DNA of 36,231 bases from an uncultured Myxococcales bacterium (GTDB lineage: Bacteria; Myxococcota_A; Bradymonadia; UBA4248), in the NCBI GenBank assembly GCA_946415045.1, contig CAMKRB010000003.1, forward strand, positions 1-36,231, written 5' to 3'. A program made the position numbers and the translations under genes. Within the stretch, counting starts at the first letter, position 1; the number at the start of each line of letters is the position of its first letter. Positions 23,909 to 35,636 of the stretch are shown piece by piece. The notes beneath the pieces are model-generated. The model was not told where the DNA came from and did not search any database. It worked only from the letters and a program-made list of their open reading frames with translations.

Positions 23909-25423
23909 ATGCAAAGACTGAGCGGTATTATTCGCAAGATTTTGTTTACGTTATTGTTTCTGATTTTACCGACGCTGGCAGTGGCGCAGGATGGTTTGCA
24001 TATCACAGGCATTGACCTTCCCGAAGAGGGTTCAAAAGCCGCCGAAGCACATGTTTCGGTGTATTTTAGTCTACGCAGCAAACAAACGCCTGTCACGGGT
24101 ATTACGAGCGACAATTGCACACTGCAGATCGATGCGAGCCCTGTGGAAATCGTCAAAGCAGAAGTCAAGCAGTTCACAGATGGCGAACGGGGAGTCGGTG
24201 TGTTGTTTGTCATTCCGATTGCCAAGAATTATTCGGAAGAAAGCTTTGGCATTCGTTCAGCACTTGACGGACTGGTTAAGAACCTGAACCGACCAGTAGA
24301 TATGCTGAATGTCGTGACGTACGACACGAATGCGGTCGCTGTAGGCTGGTCGCGGGCAAGCGAATCGGCGTTGTCGCAGGCCATCAATAACATGCAGAAC
24401 AGTGAAGTTCTTGAGCCAAACCTGTTCATGTCATTCCAACCGGCCCTGACCGCACTGCAAAGCTTGCAGAATGTTTCACAGAAATACCTGGTATTCGTCA
24501 GCGATGCCGAAGGTGCCATCGTTGGAGACAGAGACAAGGCCAACAAGCTGATTGGACAATTCACAGATGAGCTGAAGAAGAGCAACATCATGCCAATCGT
24601 GATTGCGTACAGTCCCGATGGCAAAGAGGCCATGATGAACTACACGCTGCTGCAGCGCATGGCTAACAACGTTGGTGGTGCGTTTTATATGGCCGAAGCG
24701 CCGGATCGTTTTCAGCAGGTGATTCAGCGCGATGTGCAGAACTACATCTTCGGTCAGTACATTTATGAAGCCACGCTGAACATGGACGGCAACCACTATC
24801 TTGAGCCGAACAAATACAACGTGGACTTCATCGTGAAGACCTCAAATTCGGAAGACAAGGTGAAGTACAAAATCACATGGCCGGAGCTTTCGAAGAACCG
24901 GATGTGGCTGTGGCTGACGATAATCGGCATTGTGCTGGTAGGCGGCATTGCAGCGGCAGTGATCGTAATCAGCCGGCGCAACAACGAAGAAGAGGACATC
25001 ATCGACGAGGGTCCGCAGGAAGTGTGCTGTTCGACGTGCGGCAAGACGATACCGCAGCAGCTGTATGGATTTAACGGTGAGTTCTGTCTTTCCGGCGGAT
25101 TGCCGGACTGTCCGTATTACAAGATGCCGGATCGCGGAAAGATTCAAATCACGCGAGGGCCGATGGCGGATACGACATTCTTTATCAAGAAGGACATGAC
25201 GACGATTGGATCGTATGCCGAGAATGATATCTATCTGGCCGATAAATCCGTGTCACGCAAGCATGCAGCCATCAAGGCAGACGAAGGCATGCGCTATGAG
25301 ATACGTGATTTTGGTTCATCCAACGGCGTTTACATCAACAACGAGAAGATCGAGCGCAAGTTCCTTCGGGACGGCGATTTGATTCGGTTTGGCACCGTGG
25401 AGACGGTATTCAAACTGAAATAG
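23909..25423 (+). CDS. Bitopic membrane protein: signal peptide, vWA-like exported domain, TM helix, Cys cluster, C-terminal FHA domain
   Basis: AAGGAGG RBS; vWA-like LVFVSD and LQRMANNVGGAFY; TM WLWLTIIGIVLVGGIAAAVIVI; CCSTC...C...C; FHA motifs D.SVSRKHA.I, D.GSSNGVYIN, LRDGDLIRFG. Confidence 0.82.
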   Translation: MQRLSGIIRKILFTLLFLILPTLAVAQDGLHITGIDLPEEGSKAAEAHVSVYFSLRSKQTPVTGITSDNCTLQIDASPVEIVKAEVKQFTDGERGVGVLFVIPIAKNYSEESFGIRSALDGLVKNLNRPVDMLNVVTYDTNAVAVGWSRASESALSQAINNMQNSEVLEPNLFMSFQPALTALQSLQNVSQKYLVFVSDAEGAIVGDRDKANKLIGQFTDELKKSNIMPIVIAYSPDGKEAMMNYTLLQRMANNVGGAFYMAEAPDRFQQVIQRDVQNYIFGQYIYEATLNMDGNHYLEPNKYNVDFIVKTSNSEDKVKYKITWPELSKNRMWLWLTIIGIVLVGGIAAAVIVISRRNNEEEDIIDEGPQEVCCSTCGKTIPQQLYGFNGEFCLSGGLPDCPYYKMPDRGKIQITRGPMADTTFFIKKDMTTIGSYAENDIYLADKSVSRKHAAIKADEGMRYEIRDFGSSNGVYINNEKIERKFLRDGDLIRFGTVETVFKLK

Positions 25424-25442
25424 CCCAGAGCGCAGAAAAAGA

Positions 25443-25472
25443 CCGGGTTCATCGTGAGCCCGGTTTTTTTTT
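25443..25472 (+). terminator. Intrinsic terminator (possibly bidirectional) after the FHA gene
   Basis: CCGGGTTCA-TCG-TGAGCCCGG with a T run downstream and an A run upstream. Confidence 0.85.
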
Positions 25473-25493
25473 AACAACAAATGATGTGAATGC

Positions 25494-25526
25494 GTGACAA
25501 GATTACGCAGACGTTATACAGTATAA
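25494..25526 (+). promoter_or_regulatory. Candidate promoter/operator of the tail module
   Basis: GTGACA-17bp-TACAGT, overlapped by the palindrome TTATAC-A-GTATAA (25514-25526) and the imperfect TGCGTGA-N5-TTACGCA. Confidence 0.35.
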
Positions 25527-25589
25527 GGTATGTATTTGGGCATTGTGCCTGTTTATGAACGCAATCTTCTGCGTGGCGGAAGATTTTCA

Positions 25590-25976
25590 ATGGGAAAAGA
25601 AGCAATGGCATTTCAGACCGAGTTTCAGTTTACACTTCCAAAAGGTTATGTGGACAAGGACGGCAATCTTCATCGCGAAGGCGTGATGCGTCTTGCGACG
25701 GCGAAGGACGAAATAGCCCCTCTGCAGGATTATCGTGTACAGGCCAACCGTGCGTATCTCGTCATCATTTTATTAAGCCGCGTCATCACCAAGCTTGGTA
25801 CGCTTCGCATGATCACACCGAACATCATTGAAGAGCTGTTCAGCTCGGATTTGGCATATCTGCAGGAATTTTACCGCAAGATCAATGAAGAAGGCAGCGC
25901 ATCGATCAAGGTGACATGTCCGGCATGCAAACACGAATTTGAAGTGGATATGGGGACAGGCCTGGGGGGGTATTAA
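25590..25976 (+). CDS. Contractile injection system tail assembly chaperone (short form)
   Basis: FQFTLPKGYVD.DG.LHREG.MRLATA.DEI...LLSRVI..LG...DL.YLQ.FY..IN...CPAC matches my recollection of eCIS-associated tail assembly proteins; lies next to the sheath gene. Start 25590 or 25605. Confidence 0.8.
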   Translation: MGKEAMAFQTEFQFTLPKGYVDKDGNLHREGVMRLATAKDEIAPLQDYRVQANRAYLVIILLSRVITKLGTLRMITPNIIEELFSSDLAYLQEFYRKINEEGSASIKVTCPACKHEFEVDMGTGLGGY

Positions 25977-26010
25977 GCTACCCCCTTGATAAGCTTTATC
26001 AGGAGGTAGC
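25964..26010 (+). promoter_or_regulatory. Programmed -1 ribosomal frameshift signal
   Basis: In-frame slippery heptamer G GGG GGG (25964-25970), 6-nt spacer TATTAA, stem-loop GCTACCCCCTTGATAA-GCT-TTATCAGGAGGTAGC (25977-26010). Confidence 0.78.
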
Positions 26011-26137
26011 GTATATCGCTTATCACTTCCATTGGGCGATAGACGACATCCTCAATATGGAGCATAAAGAGCGCCAGGTCTGGATTCGCGAGATTTCCGA
26101 GATCAACAAGGAAATCAACGAAAGCCGGGGTGGCTAA
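25970..26137 (+). CDS. DUF6760-like ORF, the -1 frame extension of the chaperone (not in the ORF track)
   Basis: Translates VLSYPLDKLYQEVAYIAYHFHWAIDDILNMEHKERQVWIREISEINKEINESRGG*. EVAYIAYHFHW is the recognisable family motif; no ATG/GTG/TTG lies between the upstream in-frame TGA (25940) and this motif. Confidence 0.85.
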   Translation, partial: VLSYPLDKLYQEVAYIAYHFHWAIDDILNMEHKERQVWIREISEINKEINESRGG

Positions 26138-26194
26138 CAAAGCGTCAAAGCGGGCGCGGGTTTAGTTCATGCAATAGTCGATGCAGAGGTAAAG

Positions 26195-27943
26195 ATGGCT
26201 AAGATCAGACTGCCGGGTGTATATTTTGAAGACAATCCAAAAGTAGAGCGCGAGATATCACTGGGGGAAACGGGAGTACCCGCGTTTATTGGCGTTGCCA
26301 GCCGTGGCCCGCTCAACGAGCCGGTGGTAATCCAAAGTGTCCAGCAGTTTCGAAGGTTTTTTGGAGAACCAGTAGAAGGCAGCTATCTGTATTCGAGTGT
26401 ATGGGGATTTTTCATGAACGGCGGGACGCGCTGTCATGTCATCCGCATCGCGCACGTATTCCGCAACGGCAAAGCAGAGCTGGCGCGTAAAGCCCGCTAC
26501 GAGCTTCTGGATGCATCGGGCTATCCCACACTGGAAGTCCTCGCCCACAGCGAGGGAAACTGGGGAAATGCAGTCAACATCCAGGTCTCATATCCCGAAG
26601 AATCGCGCGTCCACACGTTCATCACGCTCGATCTAGTGCCCGGATCCCACATGATCACGCTTCAGTCGACCCGCGGCATTGAACGCGGAATGCTGCTCAA
26701 GCTGTCGGACGGCGAGAATCAGAAATTCGTGACCGTAGAAAGGGTACGAGGAAATGAAATCTATTGGCGCGATGAGATCGATTGTGGCTTCCGATCTGTA
26801 TCCCCAACGTATGTCGACAGCGTCGAATTCGATTTACGCGTGAGCGAGGGCAAACGGGTAGAAAGATTCAACGGCGTTTCACTTGGCCGATGGTCGTCGC
26901 GCAACGTTGCGCGAGTTGTTGCACAGGATTCGGAACTCATCCGTGTAAACATTCTTTCGGACGGCAAGTACGAACAATACCCGGAGCAAACCAAACAGAT
27001 TCAGCTGCGCGGCGGTCGTGATGGTCTTGCCGGCATCACCCCCGACGATATCATCGGATACAACAACGGTCCGAGCGCCCGGTATGGCCTTGGCGTACTC
27101 GAATCGAACGAAGAAATCGATCTGGTCTGCGTCCCGGATTTGCAGTACTGCTTGGATCATTGTGAAGCATTCCGCAGCAGCCGCGATATGATCGGTGTAC
27201 AGACAGCGATTTTAAACCACTGCGAACGCATGGGCGACAGATTCGCGATACTCGATATGCCTCGCGATATCAAATACGAGCAAACCTATGACTATCGAAT
27301 GAAATTCGAATCGTCTTATGGAGCGCTGTACTATCCGTGGCTTATCATCAGCGATGACGGCAAAACGAAGTCTGTGCCACCATGCGGATTTTTGGCGGGT
27401 TTGTATGCGAAATGTGACCGTACAGAAGGCGTCTTTCGTGCGCCGGCAAATGTCGAGCTTCAGGGCGTATCATCACTGCACACGAATCTTGACGAAGGCC
27501 AGCTCACCGAACTGAATGAAAAAGGCGTGAACTGTATCCGTCAGTTTATGGCACGTGGCATTCGTCCATGGGGCGCCCGCAGCCTGACCAATGAACGCGA
27601 CTGGCGTTACCTGATGTCACGGCGAGTATTTTGTGCTGTAAAGCGTGCGATATATGAGAACACGCAGTGGGTGGTATTTGAAATCAACAACCAGGAACTT
27701 CGGGATCGGGTGAAAGACATGCTCGTCGATTTTCTTGGGAAATTGTGGGCGGCCGGGTATTTCCCCGGCAAAGTCCAGAAAGACGCATTTTTTGTGACAT
27801 GCGACAAGACGAACAACGACACCGAAGAAGGTGAGCAAGGAAAGATCACAATCGATGTCGGCATCGCCATCAGCCAGCCACTGGAATATCTTGTGATCAG
27901 TTTCGAGCACAAGATAGAGGAAGCGCAAAGCGTCGGCGTATAA
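26195..27943 (+). CDS. Contractile tail sheath protein (Afp2-4/gp18-like)
   Basis: PGVYFE, TGVPAFIG...RGP.N.PV, FF.NGG..C.V.R, DRFAILD, ALYYPW, VPPCG..AG.YA..D...GV.RAPAN, GIRPWGARSL, WVVFE.N. Confidence 0.95.
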   Translation: MAKIRLPGVYFEDNPKVEREISLGETGVPAFIGVASRGPLNEPVVIQSVQQFRRFFGEPVEGSYLYSSVWGFFMNGGTRCHVIRIAHVFRNGKAELARKARYELLDASGYPTLEVLAHSEGNWGNAVNIQVSYPEESRVHTFITLDLVPGSHMITLQSTRGIERGMLLKLSDGENQKFVTVERVRGNEIYWRDEIDCGFRSVSPTYVDSVEFDLRVSEGKRVERFNGVSLGRWSSRNVARVVAQDSELIRVNILSDGKYEQYPEQTKQIQLRGGRDGLAGITPDDIIGYNNGPSARYGLGVLESNEEIDLVCVPDLQYCLDHCEAFRSSRDMIGVQTAILNHCERMGDRFAILDMPRDIKYEQTYDYRMKFESSYGALYYPWLIISDDGKTKSVPPCGFLAGLYAKCDRTEGVFRAPANVELQGVSSLHTNLDEGQLTELNEKGVNCIRQFMARGIRPWGARSLTNERDWRYLMSRRVFCAVKRAIYENTQWVVFEINNQELRDRVKDMLVDFLGKLWAAGYFPGKVQKDAFFVTCDKTNNDTEEGEQGKITIDVGIAISQPLEYLVISFEHKIEEAQSVGV

Positions 27944-28329: not shown

Positions 28330-28749
28330 ATGGACAAGGCACCTTTGGGATCATTTGGATTTAGAGTATCGCTTGGCGGTGGAGATTTGTCATTATTCCA
28401 GGAAGTGAGTGGCCTGGGCGTACAGATCAATGTGAAGGATCAGCCGGAAGGCGGTATGAATTTTAGTTCGCACAAAGTGCTGGACAATGCGACGTTTAAC
28501 GATGTGACGCTGAAGCGTGGTCTGATTGGCCCGGAGATGTTCAGCTGGATCAACGACGTGGTAGCAGGTAACATTCAGCGCCGCGCGGTGAAGATTGAAG
28601 TACTGGACGACAAAGGGAAACCGGCCAAAACGTTTATTTGTATGAATGCCATTCCAGTGAAATGGGATGGTCCGACGCTTAATGTCATGCAGGATGCGAT
28701 TGCCACCGAAACACTCGTAATCGCCATTGAAGGTCTGTCGGTTAGCTAA
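28330..28749 (+). CDS. Tail tube protein, T4 gp19-like (Afp1/Afp5 type)
   Basis: AGGAGG RBS; P...F.FRV, FQEVSGL, EGG.N, DVTLKRGL, W.......I.RR.V.I.VLD, NA.PVKWDGP.LN, IA.ETL.IA.EG. Confidence 0.93.
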   Translation: MDKAPLGSFGFRVSLGGGDLSLFQEVSGLGVQINVKDQPEGGMNFSSHKVLDNATFNDVTLKRGLIGPEMFSWINDVVAGNIQRRAVKIEVLDDKGKPAKTFICMNAIPVKWDGPTLNVMQDAIATETLVIAIEGLSVS

Positions 28750-28858: not shown

Positions 28859-31800
28859 ATGTCAAACAGCAGGCATCCAGATATAGAAAATGGGACGGTT
28901 GGTCGCATCCTCCGTCGCATGACCCTGGCGACGCTGGGGTTAGATGCGATGGACGGGGTGTCCGAGCAATCGTTCGACGTGATAGACAAGGCAGATTCAT
29001 TTGCTGAACGCCTGATGGGCGGGATGTCAAGTGTATTGCCCAAGATTCATACCGAATACATGGAAAGCCGTGCGACAGGTCTGGTCGATCACATTCTGAC
29101 CGGCATGACGGGGTTAAATGGCCCCAAGAGTGCGACAGATCTTGGAGACTGGCAGTACTGGTTGGATGCAGCGCTTCTGATGCTCTTTGATGAAGAAGAG
29201 GATGAGGATGAAGCTGTGTATGCATCAGCCGGCAAAGTGGCGCACGCAGCAAAGAATACGCAGCAGGTTCGAAGCGCAGCGATGCAGCAGGCATTGCGTG
29301 AACGCGTTGTTGCACTGAAGAATTCAGGGATCAAACCGTCGATGCTTCAGGCATTGTCGAATGATCAGAAACGTGCTGTGATCAGCCAGCTCAATGCAGC
29401 CCGGAAAGCAACCGCAGAGCATACCTCCGAAGCCAGCAAATTCGCCGGACAAAAGGATGCAGATTCGCGCATTGCCGCCGAACTGAGCAACAATATTAAC
29501 GTTAATGGTGCACAGCAGTTTGCAGACAGCATCAAGGCCAGCCTGTTTGGCGACAGCCAGGCAGAAAGCGCGCTGTTTGCGAGCACATTGCTCAACGTGG
29601 TCAAAGAAGCCTCGAATCACCGCAGCATTGATACAGCTGCGAGCAAAATCGAACGCATCTATGGTCAGAATGCACAGAATTCGCACCAGACATTTGTATC
29701 GCACATTGCAGACAAGGCAGCATCCGTATCCGCCAGTCTGAACGATGCAAAGCAAATTGGTGTGCCAGCCGAACACCGTGCCGAAGCAATGCGTCTTGCC
29801 GAAAACTGGACAGAGGCAGTTGCCGGTCTGAATGCGTCTGGAAAAGTCGAAACAGCAAGCGTCCGCCGCATGCTGACGACGATCGATGCGTTGGAGCGCA
29901 TTGGTGCCGTTACCCGTGAACAGGCTCATGAAATCCGCAATGCCGGTCAGAGCTATGCCCGCCACATTCTCGCCGAAGAAGTATCGCGCGACATCACAAC
30001 GATTGCCGGCCGCATTGAACAGATGGTGGGCCGTGTATCGGATGTTGCCGGCACAGAAATGGTATCGCACCGTGCAATCACCTATACGGGCAACACTCCG
30101 AACGTCGAAGCCATCCAGATTCTCAGGAATTCGGTTGCAGCAATCAGCGACAAACTCGGTTCGCTGTCCGAAACCGTTGCATCCAAAGTATTGTCAGACG
30201 GTGAGACAGCCGCGACGATGCGTTGGCAGCGCGCAGCAGAACGCTTCACGCGTATGCAGGGCATTTCTGATGACGTCGATCGCGTGCTTCTGCGCGACAT
30301 CATCGAATCTGCCGAAGCTCTTGGCAGCACCGGTGTTGTATCCGCAGGCATGGTCAAAAGCATTGTCAGCATTCCTGCTCAGATCCAGAGCCAGAATCAG
30401 ACACCTGCAGCGGTGTCCTCCATCGCAGCAGCACAGAGCAGCAATGTCTCTGCATCCCAGAGCCGTTCTGTTCAGACCATTCTCAATGGCCGCGAAGCCG
30501 ACAAATACATCCAAAATTCTGCAATCCAGATGCTCAGCCGTATTTCAAGCCGCGTCGAAGCATCCGTGAATACACTCGCAGACGAAATCACAGCATCCGG
30601 CATCCTGCGTCCGCAGCAGGCCGAATCATTCGTTTCGGATATCCGCCGTATTGCAGCACAGGGTAAAACTGCAGCTGCAACAGATTCGCTTTCGGTTATC
30701 GAGACCTCCTCGATCATCGAATCCCTCAGTGAAAAACTCGATCAGTTTGCACAGTTCACGGCGCGCAACGTCGTTGAACAGGGCTATGATGAGCTCACCG
30801 GTGAAACACCTGCATTCGTATCCACCAGCGAAACAGCCGCACAGTCTGAGAACGTCAGTGCAAGTGCTGCAATGAACGCAGCCGCAGTTTCCTCGGTACG
30901 TGAGCTGCAGGTCGCTTTACAGAAAGCCCAGCAGACAGCCCAGGCTCAGATTCGCTCGTTTGTCGAAACACAGCAGGCATCCGCAAAGCAGGCCGAAAGC
31001 CGCAAATTCTTCGAAGCACTTGCATCCGCAAATACTGTCGAAGCCATGGTGAAAGCCCAGAATGCGCTGTCAGCCCATCTGTCGGCAGAACAGCAGTCGC
31101 AGCTCAAGCAGACAATCGAAGCCGTTCGCAGCAGTGAAGCGCATCTCGAGAACGTCAGCCGTCAAATCCGCATGATCGAAAATGCGGTCAAACTCTCAGG
31201 CGATCTCAAGAATGTACTGAACAGCGGCATCCATACAACAGCGCAGACACTTGCAAACCGTCCGCAGACCGGCAGCGTCATCAGCGCTCCCGTGATGCTC
31301 AGCGATGTCCGCGTCAATGGCGACTATCTTGCATCACTCGGCCAGACACTGGCATCCTATGCAAGAATCCGCAATGAGTTTGCCAAGGTTCAGAGTGGCT
31401 CAACATCGTTGTTAAGCGGCATGGATGTATCCCGTCTCGACAAAATGCTCTCCATCGTCAGCCCGGTTTCTTCCCGGAATGTGGCGCAGGATCAGAAATT
31501 GTCAGGATTTGCAGGCATTCAGGCAGCAGCATCCATGGATACACTGCGCAAGATCCATGGCCGTACAGATCACCAGAATCTGAGCATCTCTGCAGCAGAT
31601 GCGGATTTGGTCAAGCAGTATGCAGCCATCGGAAACTTGGATATGGTCTATCAAATTGCCAATGAAGCCGGCCATTCGGCATCATCGGTATCCGAGAGCA
31701 CCGAACTGACAGGCAACACCGAACTGACGCGTTTGTTCAACACGCTTTCGGCACAGCCGGAACTTGCCAGACGCATTGCTGAAATGGCAGCAACCGGCAA

Positions 31801-33853
31801 GAGCACCCAGGCCGGCGTTCTCCAGAACAACCGCATTGCTGAGTTCCTCGACAGCATTTCGTCGTCCAATCCCGAAACGGTTGTCGGCTATGACGAGATC
31901 ATTCCCGAAACGGCATCGTTCGTATCGCAGCAATCCGCTCGCGGCCTGTATCCTTCGAACGACAACTACAGCGATTTGACTTCTATCCTTGGTTCGCGCA
32001 AAGCCATCGAACTTCACGCCTCCGAAATGGCAACAGGTCGTCCCGGCAGTGCCCAGACGCTCGGTCAAGCCATTGAACGTTGGGCAGCATCCGCTCATGG
32101 CAACGATTCGTTTGTGTCATACGGCATCAGCGAAAACGGCGAGCGCGTCAAAGTAACCCTTGGCCTGACTCAGTCATCCGGCAATGGCGGCTATCAGCTT
32201 CGCCAGAACATGGGTTCATCCTATATGCCGGTATCGTCGCGTCAGACCGTCTCCAGCCCGGTTGCAGCATCCCTGAATATCGACAAGATCAGTTCGTCCC
32301 AGACCATTTCGGGTGCCGAAGAGTTCATGCCGGTGATTGCAGGCGCCAACCAGACCTATTCTGCATCCGATGCCTCCACCGATCGCATTCTGACCTCGCT
32401 GGTCGCTTCTCTGGCCGGAAATCAGAATATTTCACAGACACTCTCTGTCGAAGGTAATACGCTCACAGCCGCACAGCAGGCGATGGTTCAGTCGGCCGTC
32501 CAGGCACAGAATGCACAGAACACGCAGAATGCCTCTTCTTCGGATTCCGCTGCATCCCAGCGCGAAGCCGCAATGCAGAACATTCTCAATCCTCGCACGC
32601 ACCAGTCTCAGGCACAGGCCAATGCTCAGGCCATTGCAGATCGCAACACCATCAGCGGTATCCTGGGTCGTCTGGGTATCCAGATCAACGCCAACCGCAT
32701 GCCCGAAACAAGCGAACGTCTGCAGCTGAACGTTGGTAACGTCGATTTCGATATGACATCGGCCGATTTCGTCAACATGGTTGCCAAACCCGCCATTTCG
32801 TCCACCAGCTTCATGGCCCCGACACTCGTGAATGCCAATAACGTGATGTTCTCAGGCTATGCCTCGCTGATGAACAGCCAGGGCGAACGCCGCAGCCTCA
32901 AATCCCTGCGCAAATCGTATGTCGAAGCCATGGCAAAATCCGGTGCTCGCAGCACGCACGCTGAGATCGGCTTCAATACGCAGTCGTTTGCAAACATCCT
33001 TGGACTGACCTCCGGATCGATCGCAAGCGATAATCGCTATCGCATGGTTAACGGCGGCTATGATGCCGACAGTTCACATGCATTTGTTTCGTCTGCATCG
33101 ATCGATGCATCCGCATCTTCGACGGCATCCGCATCCGCACCCGAAGCCCGCATCGCAGCACAGGGCCAGATGGCAGGCCAGACCGAAGAAACGCTCGCAC
33201 AGTCGATCATCGACGGACATGCACCTGTGGCCAGCACCGAATATGGCAGCAGCGTCGACTTCTCGTGGATTTCGAACCAGCTCATGCCGCAGTTCAATGC
33301 CGGCAGCAATGCTGCATCCGAAAGCCAGACAGTCGAAAAAGAGCGCCAGATCCTTGGCCGCATCGACAACATGCTCGATTATGTCGAGAATATGAGTTCG
33401 CGCAATGTCGGCGTGTTCAGCTCAAATGACACCGTCCGCGTATTGCTCGAATCGATGTCAACCGAAGGTGAACTCGGTAACAAGGGATTGCCCAAGTGGC
33501 GTCAGAAAGACACGAAAGCTGCCCGCGCGGCTCAGGCTCGCGAACTCCGCGAAGCACTCGCCAAAATCGGTGCGAACCCAATCCAGGGTACACAGCGTGT
33601 CAATGATCGCAACTACGTCAGCCCGAATCTGTTCGCAAACCAGAATCAGGCGGCAGCCCCCCTCTTCAGCGGTGGCGGTGAAAATGGCAGTGGTTCCGTT
33701 CCAACTGCGGCTTCGCACGCCAGTGGTAATACTAACAATCGCTTGGACAACAGCACCATCCCAGAGGATGATCTGCAGTTCATAGCCGAAGAAATTTATA
33801 ACAAAATCGTTGACAGTCTTAACGACGAACTCAAGCGTAGGAGGACAGAATAA
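28859..33853 (+). CDS. 1664-aa Ala/Ser/Gln-rich protein; tape-measure or cargo candidate of the injection system
   Basis: Uninterrupted ORF between tube and initiator genes, GGAG RBS, TAATG-coupled to the next gene; no Cys, signal peptide or obvious TM helix. Function inferred from position and composition only. Confidence 0.6.
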   Translation: MSNSRHPDIENGTVGRILRRMTLATLGLDAMDGVSEQSFDVIDKADSFAERLMGGMSSVLPKIHTEYMESRATGLVDHILTGMTGLNGPKSATDLGDWQYWLDAALLMLFDEEEDEDEAVYASAGKVAHAAKNTQQVRSAAMQQALRERVVALKNSGIKPSMLQALSNDQKRAVISQLNAARKATAEHTSEASKFAGQKDADSRIAAELSNNINVNGAQQFADSIKASLFGDSQAESALFASTLLNVVKEASNHRSIDTAASKIERIYGQNAQNSHQTFVSHIADKAASVSASLNDAKQIGVPAEHRAEAMRLAENWTEAVAGLNASGKVETASVRRMLTTIDALERIGAVTREQAHEIRNAGQSYARHILAEEVSRDITTIAGRIEQMVGRVSDVAGTEMVSHRAITYTGNTPNVEAIQILRNSVAAISDKLGSLSETVASKVLSDGETAATMRWQRAAERFTRMQGISDDVDRVLLRDIIESAEALGSTGVVSAGMVKSIVSIPAQIQSQNQTPAAVSSIAAAQSSNVSASQSRSVQTILNGREADKYIQNSAIQMLSRISSRVEASVNTLADEITASGILRPQQAESFVSDIRRIAAQGKTAAATDSLSVIETSSIIESLSEKLDQFAQFTARNVVEQGYDELTGETPAFVSTSETAAQSENVSASAAMNAAAVSSVRELQVALQKAQQTAQAQIRSFVETQQASAKQAESRKFFEALASANTVEAMVKAQNALSAHLSAEQQSQLKQTIEAVRSSEAHLENVSRQIRMIENAVKLSGDLKNVLNSGIHTTAQTLANRPQTGSVISAPVMLSDVRVNGDYLASLGQTLASYARIRNEFAKVQSGSTSLLSGMDVSRLDKMLSIVSPVSSRNVAQDQKLSGFAGIQAAASMDTLRKIHGRTDHQNLSISAADADLVKQYAAIGNLDMVYQIANEAGHSASSVSESTELTGNTELTRLFNTLSAQPELARRIAEMAATGKSTQAGVLQNNRIAEFLDSISSSNPETVVGYDEIIPETASFVSQQSARGLYPSNDNYSDLTSILGSRKAIELHASEMATGRPGSAQTLGQAIERWAASAHGNDSFVSYGISENGERVKVTLGLTQSSGNGGYQLRQNMGSSYMPVSSRQTVSSPVAASLNIDKISSSQTISGAEEFMPVIAGANQTYSASDASTDRILTSLVASLAGNQNISQTLSVEGNTLTAAQQAMVQSAVQAQNAQNTQNASSSDSAASQREAAMQNILNPRTHQSQAQANAQAIADRNTISGILGRLGIQINANRMPETSERLQLNVGNVDFDMTSADFVNMVAKPAISSTSFMAPTLVNANNVMFSGYASLMNSQGERRSLKSLRKSYVEAMAKSGARSTHAEIGFNTQSFANILGLTSGSIASDNRYRMVNGGYDADSSHAFVSSASIDASASSTASASAPEARIAAQGQMAGQTEETLAQSIIDGHAPVASTEYGSSVDFSWISNQLMPQFNAGSNAASESQTVEKERQILGRIDNMLDYVENMSSRNVGVFSSNDTVRVLLESMSTEGELGNKGLPKWRQKDTKAARAAQARELREALAKIGANPIQGTQRVNDRNYVSPNLFANQNQAAAPLFSGGGENGSGSVPTAASHASGNTNNRLDNSTIPEDDLQFIAEEIYNKIVDSLNDELKRRRTE

Positions 33854-34506
33854 TGAACTTTAATGAAGCACTCAGCAAACTGTGCAAATTAACCATTGTC
33901 GCCATCGAGAATCCTGGCGGATCCGTTTCGGCATTCTACAATCCAAAGGAGGTCTCATTCTCCAAGTCTGTGAAATGGGCCCCCGATAGCCAGGGTATGG
34001 CTACGGATTATCCCGCGCTGCAGTTCACCAACGGTGATGCCATCTCTTTGTCCGTCGATCTGTACTTCGATCTCTATGAAGTTGGTGGCGATGTGCGTCC
34101 GTTCATCAACACACTCATGGCTTACTGCCTCAAGCACCCGCAGGATGGTGGCGAAGAACGTCCGCCCAAAGTCAAGGTTCTTTGGGGTGGCGAACTCCTC
34201 GCTGGTACGTCGTTCGAAGAGGCTGTTATCGACAACGTTTCAGTCACATACACGATGTTCCACGCATCCGGTGCACCCTGCCGTGCAAAAGCTACCGTCA
34301 AGATGACTCAGGCTCTCGCAGTCGGTGCATCCGTCGATGGCTCCAAACACTACAACGTCACAAGCGCCGCCCAGGGCAGCCAGATTCCTGGATTTAAGGA
34401 ATATTGCGAACAAAACAACATCGATATGACAAACCCCAAATCCTACGAAAACGGCATCAGCTATAGCTCCGCTTCCGGTTCGGATAGTGGTGGTGGTGAT
34501 AAGTAA
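33853..34506 (+). CDS. Tube initiator / baseplate tube protein (Afp7/Pvc7-like)
   Basis: YNPKE.SF.KSVKW, P.LQFT.G....LS..L.FD.YE, RPP.V...WG, VI..VSV.YTMF...G.P.RA..TV.M; C-terminal LysM is degenerate. Confidence 0.85.
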   Translation: MNFNEALSKLCKLTIVAIENPGGSVSAFYNPKEVSFSKSVKWAPDSQGMATDYPALQFTNGDAISLSVDLYFDLYEVGGDVRPFINTLMAYCLKHPQDGGEERPPKVKVLWGGELLAGTSFEEAVIDNVSVTYTMFHASGAPCRAKATVKMTQALAVGASVDGSKHYNVTSAAQGSQIPGFKEYCEQNNIDMTNPKSYENGISYSSASGSDSGGGDK

Positions 34507-34556: not shown

Positions 34557-35636
34557 ATGCCCGGCATCAGAACACCAGGATTCAGAATGACGATTGGTGG
34601 AAGATCCTTTAATGAGGAACCCAAAAAGAATCACGTCGCACAGATTACTGTCGAACAGACCGCCGATGGCGCGAGCTCATTCGAAGTGATTCTCGACGAT
34701 TCTGCCAATATTTATTCTCAACAAGATCCTATCAAAGAAGGTGAGAGCTGCTCAATTTCTCTCGGTTTCGCAGAAAAAGGCGGCCCAAAGCCTGTATTCT
34801 CCGGCACCGTCAGCAGCGTCAAAATTAAACGTAAAGAAAGCGGCCGCAAGCTCATTTATGTGAAAGGTTACGATCCATTGTATGGACTCACGACCGGTAG
34901 AAAACGTCGCTCGTGGGAAGAGATTAAAGACTCCGACCTCGTCAGCGAAATCCTCTCCGATCACGGCATCAAAATCGCCGAAATCGAAGATACTGGTATC
35001 ATTCTGCCGTTCGTCGTCCAGAACAACCTCAACGACCTCAACTTCCTGCAGGAACGTGCCAAACATAATGGCTACGAACTCAAGTACGAAACCAATCCCG
35101 AACGCGATGGCGCTGTATTCGCCAAGCCCAAAAGAAGCGATGGCGGCGCTATCCTCCGCTGGGATGCTGCAAAGGAAGACGGCGCAACCGCTCTCCTGCA
35201 GCGCTGCGATTTCGATACATCCACCATCAACCAGCCAAACGCTGTCGTCGTTCGTTGGTACGATCCAGATGCAGCCGAGCCTATCATCGGTAAAGCTGCG
35301 GATGTCACCGGCGATAAAATGGGCGGCAGTATCAGACAGGGTAACACCTCTCACACCATCCAGATCAGCGATATCCCCGTCTACAGCGCCGAAGAAGCTG
35401 AACGCGTTGCGCAGAGTATTCTCGATCAGCGCGCCGGTGAATACCTCACCGGTGTTGGTCAGTGCATCGGCTGCCCCGATGTGCTCTGCGGACACAAAGT
35501 CAAAATCGAAGACGTCGGCCCCGACTTCACTGGTGATTACTATGTCACCGAATGCAAGCACGTCTTCAAAGTCGGTGGCGGCCGCGGTTTCGGTTACTGG
35601 ACTTCCTTCAAAGTCTCCAGAACCGGCAGCCACTAA
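34557..35636 (+). CDS. Baseplate hub, phage late control D / gp27-like (N-terminal VgrG/Afp8 region only)
   Basis: TAAGGAGG RBS; I.LGF.......VFSG.V, L..GRK.RSW...KDSD.V..I, VVQ.N.NDL.FL.ERA...GYE, G.G...G.PD...G..V.I..VG..F.G.YYVT...H. Confidence 0.88.
   Translation: MPGIRTPGFRMTIGGRSFNEEPKKNHVAQITVEQTADGASSFEVILDDSANIYSQQDPIKEGESCSISLGFAEKGGPKPVFSGTVSSVKIKRKESGRKLIYVKGYDPLYGLTTGRKRRSWEEIKDSDLVSEILSDHGIKIAEIEDTGIILPFVVQNNLNDLNFLQERAKHNGYELKYETNPERDGAVFAKPKRSDGGAILRWDAAKEDGATALLQRCDFDTSTINQPNAVVVRWYDPDAAEPIIGKAADVTGDKMGGSIRQGNTSHTIQISDIPVYSAEEAERVAQSILDQRAGEYLTGVGQCIGCPDVLCGHKVKIEDVGPDFTGDYYVTECKHVFKVGGGRGFGYWTSFKVSRTGSH

Follow-up and report, generated by a model that had tools for sequence, protein, structure and literature searches.

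A probable programmed −1 ribosomal frameshift joining a tail assembly chaperone to DUF6760 in a contractile injection system cluster of an uncultured Myxococcales bacterium

Introduction

How is a conserved protein domain made when the open reading frame (ORF) that encodes it has no start codon? The question is raised by a 36,231-nucleotide stretch of DNA from an uncultured Myxococcales bacterium (assembly GCA_946415045.1, contig CAMKRB010000003.1, positions 1 to 36,231 of the forward strand), referred to here as the window. In this window, the gene of a putative tail assembly chaperone (TAC) is followed, in the −1 frame, by an ORF that matches the Pfam family DUF6760. An initial annotation, made from the letters only, had proposed that a programmed frameshift fuses the two, after the fashion of the G and GT proteins of phage lambda, and that DUF6760 is the "T" half of the pair in an extracellular contractile injection system (eCIS).

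Chaperone frameshifts are the rule in long-tailed phages. In lambda, according to the 2016 review of Atkins et al., the G:GT ratio is 30:1, G binds the tape measure and T the tube protein, and neither is present in the virion (PMC5009743). The comparative analysis presented below makes a lambda G/GT-type programmed −1 ribosomal frameshift in the TAC gene, with predicted products of 123 and 177 amino acids (aa), the favoured reading, with a probability of about 0.85. What the data show are the anatomy of the sequence and its conservation, selection on the RNA structure and the existence of natural fusions.

Anatomy of the junction

The junction is made of the following elements.

25605..25976, + strand: TAC gene in frame 0, 123 aa plus stop (TAA at 25974–25976)
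25964..25970, + strand: slippery heptamer G_GGG_GGG, in phase with the TAC frame
25971..25976, + strand: spacer of 6 nucleotides (nt), formed by the final TAC sense codon and the TAA stop
25977..26010, + strand: downstream stem-loop of 14 base pairs (bp), arms GCUACC...GGUAGC plus an inner helix; putative stimulator
25964..25987, + strand: alternative hairpin in which the G-run pairs with the C-run of the main hairpin's 5′ arm; mutually exclusive with the main hairpin
25970..26137, + strand: −1 frame extension, DUF6760 (Pfam PF20546), 55 codons plus TAA

The TAC ORF ends with ...GGC CTG GGG GGG TAT TAA on the + strand, and its run of seven G (G7) does lie in phase as the heptamer initially described. 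In the −1 frame, no stop codon occurs between 25943 and the TAA at 26135–26137, and the motif EVAYIAYHFHW is encoded; the first ATG, GTG or TTG of this frame is the ATG at 26057, 3′ of the motif, which bears out the earlier description of a hidden ORF with no start codon before it. The −1 peptide matches Pfam DUF6760 with an E-value of 2.7e-15 and 56.6 bits (gathering cut-off 27), over profile positions 8–53 of 89.

Two other in-frame starts are available to the TAC gene, ATG 25590 (128 aa) and ATG 25530 (148 aa). Since TAC homologues are mostly called at 123 aa, with a start matching the residue of ATG 25605, the latter is the likelier one. The products of 128 and 182 aa first predicted from ATG 25590 are arithmetically correct but should probably be replaced by products of 123 and 177 aa.

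Conservation of the frame relation and of the slip site

Homologous junctions were gathered from two sources. Among relatives of the window, 33 of 61 genomes carry DUF6760 (the window's own genome included), and of their 34 matches the best 30 were retained. A collection in which each species is represented by a single genome gave at least 591 DUF6760 loci, of which the best 80 were examined. The labels of the examined loci are mostly of Myxococcota type, with a few Chloroflexota or Planctomycetota. At all 110 loci, TAC lies directly upstream and DUF6760 is in its −1 frame (109 loci placed by script and one, L088, by eye). In L088, located on a 4-Mb contig, TAC is broken into three frames within 350 nt, by what looks like indel errors of a long-read assembly; the last piece reads ACG GGG GGA TAG and DUF6760 is still in the −1 frame. 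Ten of the 109 loci placed by script are identical to others from −60 to the DUF6760 stop and were dropped, which leaves 99 distinct junctions, the basis of the counts that follow.

Even sampling of the phylum to which L100 belongs (record label Caldilineaceae; referred to as the second phylum) showed the domain in 24 of 301 genomes. One locus (L149), whose genome is flagged as unpublished, was left out, and the −1 relation holds in 23 of the 23 loci counted. The −1 offset is thus conserved across homologous junctions, as the initial annotation anticipated.

An in-phase G_GGG_N heptamer that ends at most two codons from the TAC stop was found at each of the 99 distinct loci, in the following forms.

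G_GGG_GAA: 62 loci of 99
G_GGG_GGG (the window's type): 21 loci of 99
G_GGG_GGA: 10 loci of 99
G_GGG followed at once by a stop codon: 6 loci of 99

In the second phylum, the heptamer is present in 22 of 23 loci. Wherever the G-run forms a Gly codon in the −1 frame, this codon is GGG (94 of 94), although GGG makes up 0.21 of Gly usage in the loci, an approximate background estimated from their stop-free stretches of 200 codons or more. In the window's genome, GGG accounts for 0.12 of the Gly codons, and tRNA-Gly genes with anticodons CCC, UCC and GCC are encoded. The heptamer GGGGGAA is non-canonical with respect to X_XXY_YYZ. It is the "fivetwo" motif of about 1000 SEA-PHAGES annotations of tail-chaperone frameshifts in actinobacteriophages, for which a re-pairing of the second tRNA through G:U has been proposed, as reported in the PRFect paper (PMC10885494). 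A G-rich block is also found 8–12 nt upstream of the heptamer, with a Shine–Dalgarno-like word in 81 of the 99 loci. This block could add a Shine–Dalgarno-like stimulus, but it coincides with conserved Gly codons, and no selection on it apart from theirs is apparent.

A downstream hairpin under selection

The stem-loop of about 14 bp that the initial annotation placed 6 nt after the heptamer was recovered with 14 pairs. Its minimum free energy (MFE) compares as follows with that of two other loci.

Window, 25977–26010: MFE −15.5 kcal/mol, z −4.2, 0 of 200 shuffles as good
L002: MFE −22.3 kcal/mol, z −6.2, 0 of 200 shuffles as good
L054: MFE −23.1 kcal/mol, z −3.8, 0 of 200 shuffles as good

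The spacer between heptamer and 5′ arm measures 6 nt in 90 of 99 loci, a distance within the 5–9 nt that characterize dnaX-type signals. Selection on the RNA itself was addressed by a recoding control on the 36-nt segment that encodes SYPL...QEVA, in which the peptide was kept and synonymous codons were resampled by each locus's own usage. Over the 99 loci, the median MFE of the segment is −19.0, versus −7.0 in the synonymous recodings, and in 91 of the loci the natural fold is equalled by at most 5 of the 200 recodings. Codon choice in the hairpin arms is extremely biased: Val is GTA in 91/99 (background 0.13), Ser is AGC in 84/84 (background 0.22), Pro is CCC in 83/99 (background 0.28) and Glu is GAG in 96/99 (background 0.57). 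Pair counting on the alignment gives 86% of cells paired, versus 29–66% when the partners are slid. The clearest compensatory change is seen in L011, L012, L021 and L060, where CTG to TTG (Leu) goes with CAG to CAA (Gln), giving four U-A cells. The junction alignment thus retains the G-run, the 6-nt spacing and the hairpin in 90 to 99 of 99 loci, whereas the stem covariation that had been looked for is weak in the main family, because the hairpin arms hardly vary. A search of Rfam gave no match at E up to 1.

A divergent subfamily of the second phylum (L154, L158–L163, L165 and L166) has T-Y-A in place of S-Y-P, and most of its members read GTGA at the junction (by eye); in this subfamily, both a frameshift and start-stop coupling look possible. 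A longer and different hairpin occupies the same place there, with arms ACGUACGCG and CGCGUACGU and energies of −22 to −31 kcal/mol. Its 5′ arm begins at the stop codon, and 0 to 13 of 200 recodings fold as well. The replacement of both arms with the hairpin kept is the strongest structural argument. Six of the 99 loci (L098, L099, L101, L104, L105 and L107), several of them labelled Kofleriaceae, have the stop directly after G_GGG; they carry six extra codons before T/S-Y-P and no significant downstream hairpin.

The initial annotation also described a second hairpin, mutually exclusive with the first, that covers the slip site and could tune its efficiency. Such a hairpin does exist in the window (25964–25987; −14.5 kcal/mol when folded alone, 2 of 200 shuffles as good), but it is not preferred in a 76-nt context, where the MFE and centroid structures both retain the downstream hairpin. 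In loci of the GGGGGAA type, it would be reduced to a 5-bp G:C helix with a 12-nt loop. A role in tuning frameshift efficiency is speculation.

The predicted DUF6760 extension

Start codons were counted in the −1 frame from the preceding stop to the conserved SYP. No ATG, GTG or TTG (NTG) precedes SYP in 53 of the 99 loci, and in 21 others the only one lies far upstream, inside the TAC coding region. In the fusion frame, the codon at the junction is a conserved Val (GTA 35, GTG 18). The GTG form coincides with a TGA stop of TAC, while with a TAA or TAG stop the position reads GTA; in the window it reads GTA/TTA, with no NTG.

The Tyr and Pro of SYP are invariant in the −1 frame (99/99), and third positions vary where they are free to do so: the Ala codon after EV is GCG in 52 loci, GCC in 29, GCT in 17 and GCA in one, and Arg CGN also varies. 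Amino-acid conservation from SYP onward indicates that the stretch between the junction and the first ATG is translated, and both frames are under purifying selection. An AGGAGG inside the hairpin was considered as a Shine–Dalgarno sequence for an internal start. It was rejected because the conserved SYP...QEV residues upstream of such a start are clearly translated.

In four database proteins, a single frame encodes the chaperone domain together with DUF6760. One of them, P0123 (174 aa), is closely related and has a junction that resembles the predicted −1 product of the GGGGGAA type. The three others, P0289, P0330 and P0355 (150–167 aa), are more distant; they share 47–51% identity with the TAC of the window (E 6e-26 to 2e-34) and have neither the zinc-ribbon-like segment of this TAC (see below) nor the G-run. 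With their different linkers, they are better evidence than P0123 that the fused polypeptide is functional. A tblastn search of P0123 against 50,697 phage records gave no match.

An AlphaFold2 model of P0123, built from a 110-row alignment, shows a confident chaperone domain (residues 1–95), a low-confidence zinc-ribbon linker and a DUF6760 unit made of three helices (126–140, 144–148 and 152–173; pLDDT about 90), arranged as helix-loop-helix-helix. The DUF6760 profile reaches only chance-level matches (E of 0.88 or more) against all chains of the Protein Data Bank (PDB), and a structural search with the DUF6760 part returned generic helix-loop-helix or helical hairpins only (Z up to 6).

Contigs that hold the stretch were found in 13 DNA and 6 RNA libraries. 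Those that span the G-run in two RNA libraries from different studies (X14 record 2, X15 record 4) read G7 with no indel, as do about 20 related assemblies. The run length, which the earlier reading left to be checked, is therefore G7 and not G8. Rare variants are lost in such contigs, which are no proof of transcription either; a DNA run available as raw reads (X21) had 0 reads on the stretch.

The upstream protein

Searched against Pfam and NCBIfam, the ORF upstream of the slip site gave no match, but among the PHROG families it matches number 508, "tail assembly chaperone" (E 3.5e-8). It has at least 7992 homologues, some of which are named "phage tail assembly protein" by NCBI. A CxxC zinc-ribbon-like motif occupies its C-terminus, immediately before the slip site. 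Modelled alone with AlphaFold, the protein reaches a pLDDT of 72.5, the CxxC segment being of low confidence. Comparison of this model with 48,161 PDB representatives placed YqbN (3klu; Z 6.9, rmsd 4.3, 90 aligned residues) first and the HK97 tail assembly chaperone (2ob9; Z 6.0, rmsd 4.0, 85 aligned residues) second, followed by a pair of phage-like, uncharacterised proteins (Z 5.5 and 4.6); Z does not exceed 3.3 in the unrelated rows. YqbN is presumably the tail chaperone of a PBSX-like prophage. Both of these leading matches have Z below 8 and a sequence identity of 8–12%, and a sequence search of TAC against the PDB gave chance-level matches only.

Among models of viral proteins (BFVD), the best counterparts of the fused model are T4-like proteins of "baseplate hub assembly", at E 5e-4 to 8e-3; a "tape measure chaperone" follows at E 0.029 and FS-gp41 of Mu at E 0.28. 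Matches of the fused model in the PDB are weak: with Foldseek, the HK97 chaperone comes on top at E 1.2, and a second comparison gives Z 2.8. Taken together, these data assign the upstream ORF to the tail-assembly-chaperone family or fold with moderate confidence. Tandem duplications of the TAC domain within single polypeptides are also seen, in P0007 (259 aa) and P0027 (211 aa).

Proposed mechanism and alternative explanations

The slip on the ribosome, its efficiency and the binding target of DUF6760 are inferred steps. Most ribosomes would stay in the TAC frame until the TAA at 25974, producing the 123-aa chaperone from ATG 25605. Some would pause with tRNA-Gly on the GGG codon or codons of 25964–25970, held by the hairpin at 25977–26010, re-pair one base back and go on in the −1 frame to 26137, giving a 177-aa TAC-DUF6760 protein. 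The GGG codon in the P site would re-pair one base back, while the A-site codon would follow fully (GGG, GGA), follow via G:U (GAA) or be a stop. DUF6760 would then be here a frameshift-encoded C-terminal extension, the "T" part of the pair, rather than a free-standing gene. Production by frameshift would explain its usual lack of a start codon. The central proposal of the initial annotation is in this way backed by the G-run, the −1 offset, the spaced hairpin, the lack of start codons and the fusions.

Several observations weigh against this reading. The hairpin is missing from 8 of the 99 loci, namely L040, L091 and the six loci with a stop directly after G_GGG, where the A-site stop itself may provide the pause and replace the hairpin. 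Covariation amounts to seven double-change cells, a number reached by 4 of 500 shuffles, and three double-change pairs, reached by 67 of 500; RNAalifold found no consensus structure on the 99-sequence junction alignment. With GGGGGAA, the A-site tRNA re-pairs only via a G:U pair. In the second phylum, L143 (G355:C2) is the sole locus with no G-run; its DUF6760 starts 89 nt after the TAC stop, and the −1 frame, open far upstream, includes an acidic insertion. P0123 comes from a single metagenome-assembled genome, in which a homopolymer error could have created the fusion. Finally, the TAC gene is placed before the sheath gene, unlike the phage position between the tube and tape measure genes.

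The start codons bear on another explanation, in which DUF6760 is a separate small protein translated by termination-reinitiation or translational coupling at the TAC stop. An NTG does overlap or adjoin this stop in 25 of the 99 loci (GTG 21, TTG 2, ATG 2) and, by eye, in most members of the divergent second-phylum subfamily, as GTGA. Furthermore, databases hold 183 separately called DUF6760 proteins; those of 53–55 aa begin with M/V-SYPL, and those of 70–83 aa begin in the −1 frame of TAC with non-conserved N-termini. A separately initiated peptide of about 54 aa is thus possible in the loci with an NTG at the junction. However, as no NTG precedes 26057 in the window, this route is impossible by ordinary initiation here, and the counts given above extend this to most loci; homologues have no consistent start of their own for DUF6760. 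The GTG arises only where the stop is TGA, at a codon that reads as a conserved Val, the G-run and hairpin are retained in the loci with a junction NTG too, and, as the in-frame fusions found in nature show, a fused protein is viable. Separate initiation is therefore unlikely as the general explanation, and may be an extra route in some lineages, but not in the window.

The fused protein would be the same if RNA polymerase, rather than the ribosome, slipped and added one G, so that a minority of the mRNAs would encode the fusion in frame. The conserved core is indeed a homopolymer run and, as rare variants are invisible in contigs, low-level slippage of this kind is compatible with the contig data. 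On the other hand, the run is only G5 in 62 of the 99 loci and only G4 in six, and runs of four or five G are short for polymerase slippage. Transcriptional slippage also leaves unexplained the phase of G_GGG, kept at 99 of 99 loci, and the hairpin at a fixed 6 nt, and the RNA-library contigs across the run show no indel. This makes it a very improbable source of the fusion. Even less can be said for an artefact, either a homopolymer error of the assembly (a true G8, hence a simple fused gene) or a pseudogenised fusion. Homopolymer runs are error-prone, L088 shows clear indel breaks inside TAC and one fused form, P0123, exists among close relatives. But the −1 relation recurs at every locus of both samples, in independent assemblies with varied run lengths and heptamers, both frames bear the marks of purifying selection, and RNA-library contigs of two studies agree on G7. 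As far as a comparison of the 110 loci can decide, both an assembly error and a pseudogene are ruled out. The programmed ribosomal frameshift remains the favoured reading.

The surrounding gene cluster

Downstream of the TAC-DUF6760 junction, the window carries the following genes.

26195..27943, + strand: tail sheath gene (Pfam Phage_sheath_1, E 1.9e-17, plus Phage_sheath_1C)
28330..28749, + strand: gp19-like tail tube gene (Pfam Phage_T4_gp19, E 1.8e-29); candidate partner of DUF6760
28859..33853, + strand: ORF of 1664 aa in the tape-measure position; candidate partner of the TAC domain, its role being suggested by position only
33853..34506, + strand: CIS_tube (tube-initiator-like) gene (Pfam CIS_tube, E 1.9e-21)
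34557..35636, + strand: GPD-type baseplate hub gene (Pfam Phage_GPD, E 9.3e-12)

The order is therefore TAC/DUF6760, sheath, tube, 1664-aa ORF, tube initiator and hub, and housekeeping genes make up the window before 23900 and after 35686. The 1664-aa ORF has zero Pfam, NCBIfam or PHROG matches; it is rich in Ala, Ser and Gln, and is flanked by the tube gene and the tube-initiator-like gene. In some relatives (e.g., genomes G057 and G039), coordinates place a tube paralogue directly upstream of TAC.

Directly 5′ of the cluster, a gene at 23909–25423 (+ strand) encodes a protein of 504 aa that ends in an FHA domain (E 2.2e-19) and has weak matches to the TagH protein associated with type VI secretion systems and to a YscD-like domain of type III secretion systems. 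It is possibly a regulator or an anchor of the injection system. Between this gene and TAC, contigs covering TAC begin at 25547, 25549 or 25555 in three RNA libraries, and depth is zero over 25474–25510. This is a hint, and only that, of a transcript start between the two genes, upstream of ATG 25590 and ATG 25605 and downstream of ATG 25530; a scan for consensus promoters and terminators gave no signal above chance.

In the window, the cluster ends after the hub gene at 35636. Elsewhere in the same genome, one contig (C16:11691-11957, L111) carries a GPW_gp25 gene (gp25-like wedge) and another (C139:254-2640, L112) a Pvc16_N terminator gene beside a second tube paralogue. The eCIS core genes that were searched for (sheath, tube, tube initiator, spike/hub, gp25-like wedge and Pvc16-like terminator) are thus all present, on at least three contigs. 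The injection system is split either across several genomic sites or by gaps in the assembly, which counts 504 contigs. By its genes, the cluster is that of a contractile injection system, and the label "eCIS", which implies particles released to act from outside the target cell, is a tentative one. As for the setting initially proposed, contractile-injection-system genes do surround the junction, but TAC precedes the sheath gene and does not lie between the tube and tape-measure genes.

Among the sequencing runs listed for positions 25400–26500, all those that name an organism are labelled as sheep, bovine or other gut metagenomes or metatranscriptomes. Ruminant sample labels are also found on close relatives in the species-representative scan; for genomes labelled Myxococcota, such a habitat is unusual.

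On the lambda model, the tape-measure protein (probably encoded by the 1664-aa ORF) would be coated by the TAC domain common to both products, and the rarer DUF6760 extension would link the chaperone complex to the tube or hub and so start tube assembly.

Comparison with known systems

The closest parallel is gpG/gpGT of lambda, where the two ORFs also overlap, the second one being in the −1 frame with no start, and where the slip heptamer also lies a few codons 5′ of the stop of the first ORF. A short abundant product and a rare extended one are expected in both cases, and the upstream part has a chaperone-like fold. The differences are that lambda is a phage whereas the present pair belongs to a chromosomal contractile-injection-system cluster, that the pair lies between tube and tape measure in lambda and upstream of the sheath gene here, that DUF6760 shows no detected similarity to lambda T and that a strong downstream hairpin is under selection here.

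Chaperone frameshifts of actinobacteriophages, as presented in PMC10885494, concern the same class of tail-chaperone genes and the same −1 direction, and their heptamer GGGGGAA is identical to that of 62 of the 99 loci. Their hosts and proteins are different, and the window itself has GGGGGGG. In the same way, P2 and Mu have a chaperone frameshift within a contractile tail module, P2 being named in PMC5009743; no sequence similarity to them was found, and the structural match to FS-gp41 of Mu is weak (see above). Among solved structures, the HK97 chaperone and YqbN are the best matches, to which the window protein adds its C-terminal CxxC segment. The chaperone pairs of the two contractile phages are E/E+E′ in P2 and gp41/FS-gp41 in Mu.

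The Alg6/Afp6 plug offers another comparison. Alg6, as described in PMC8894135, is a free protein with an N-terminal strand and a C-terminal helix that forms a trimer in the spike cavity; the plug is a small, assembly-essential protein of contractile injection systems, tens of residues long. DUF6760 is also a small module specific to such systems. Unlike the plug, it is modelled as helix-loop-helix-helix, lacks its own start codon here and matches no solved chain.

What the frameshift would mean

A literature search that left supplements and subscription journals outside its scope found no published mention of DUF6760, nor any chaperone frameshift in contractile injection systems, eCIS or tailocins. 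The words "chaperone" and "frameshift" are also absent from the main text of an eCIS survey (PMC6899500) and of the AlgoCIS paper (PMC8894135). The phenomenon is thus of a known kind, since phage chaperone frameshifts and the main heptamer have been described, and is undescribed for injection systems in the literature searched.

If the frameshift is real, the orphan family DUF6760 gains an identity, that of a frameshift-encoded extension of a tail assembly chaperone. This would explain why the chaperone has at least 7992 homologues while separately called DUF6760 proteins are so few (183 in databases), and would reveal a systematic annotation gap, the domain being found at 591 or more loci of a species-representative collection. 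The G/GT frameshift rule would extend from tailed phages to chromosomal contractile injection systems. For those who engineer such systems as delivery devices, a hidden assembly factor whose ratio is controlled would have to stay intact when clusters are refactored. The loci also provide a natural series for the evolution of frameshift signals, with hairpin, A-site stop with no hairpin, start-stop overlap and fusion. Furthermore, the 1664-aa ORF, if it is a ruler, would imply a tail unusually long for a contractile injection system.

A broader and more doubtful proposal is that TAC-DUF6760 serves as an assembly switch, conserved in a large and mostly uncultured clade of contractile injection systems. 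This switch would exist in four interchangeable wirings: a hairpin-stimulated −1 frameshift in most loci, an A-site-stop frameshift with no hairpin in Kofleriaceae-labelled loci, a start-stop overlap with a free peptide, and a permanent fusion. In this scheme, DUF6760 would act as a "T" domain of a new kind, docking by its helix-loop-helix and coupling the chaperone-coated 1664-aa tape measure to the hub or tube. Were this true, DUF6760 might fill the role of the free Afp6/Alg6 plug, and the ratio set by the frameshift would control the number of tails nucleated.

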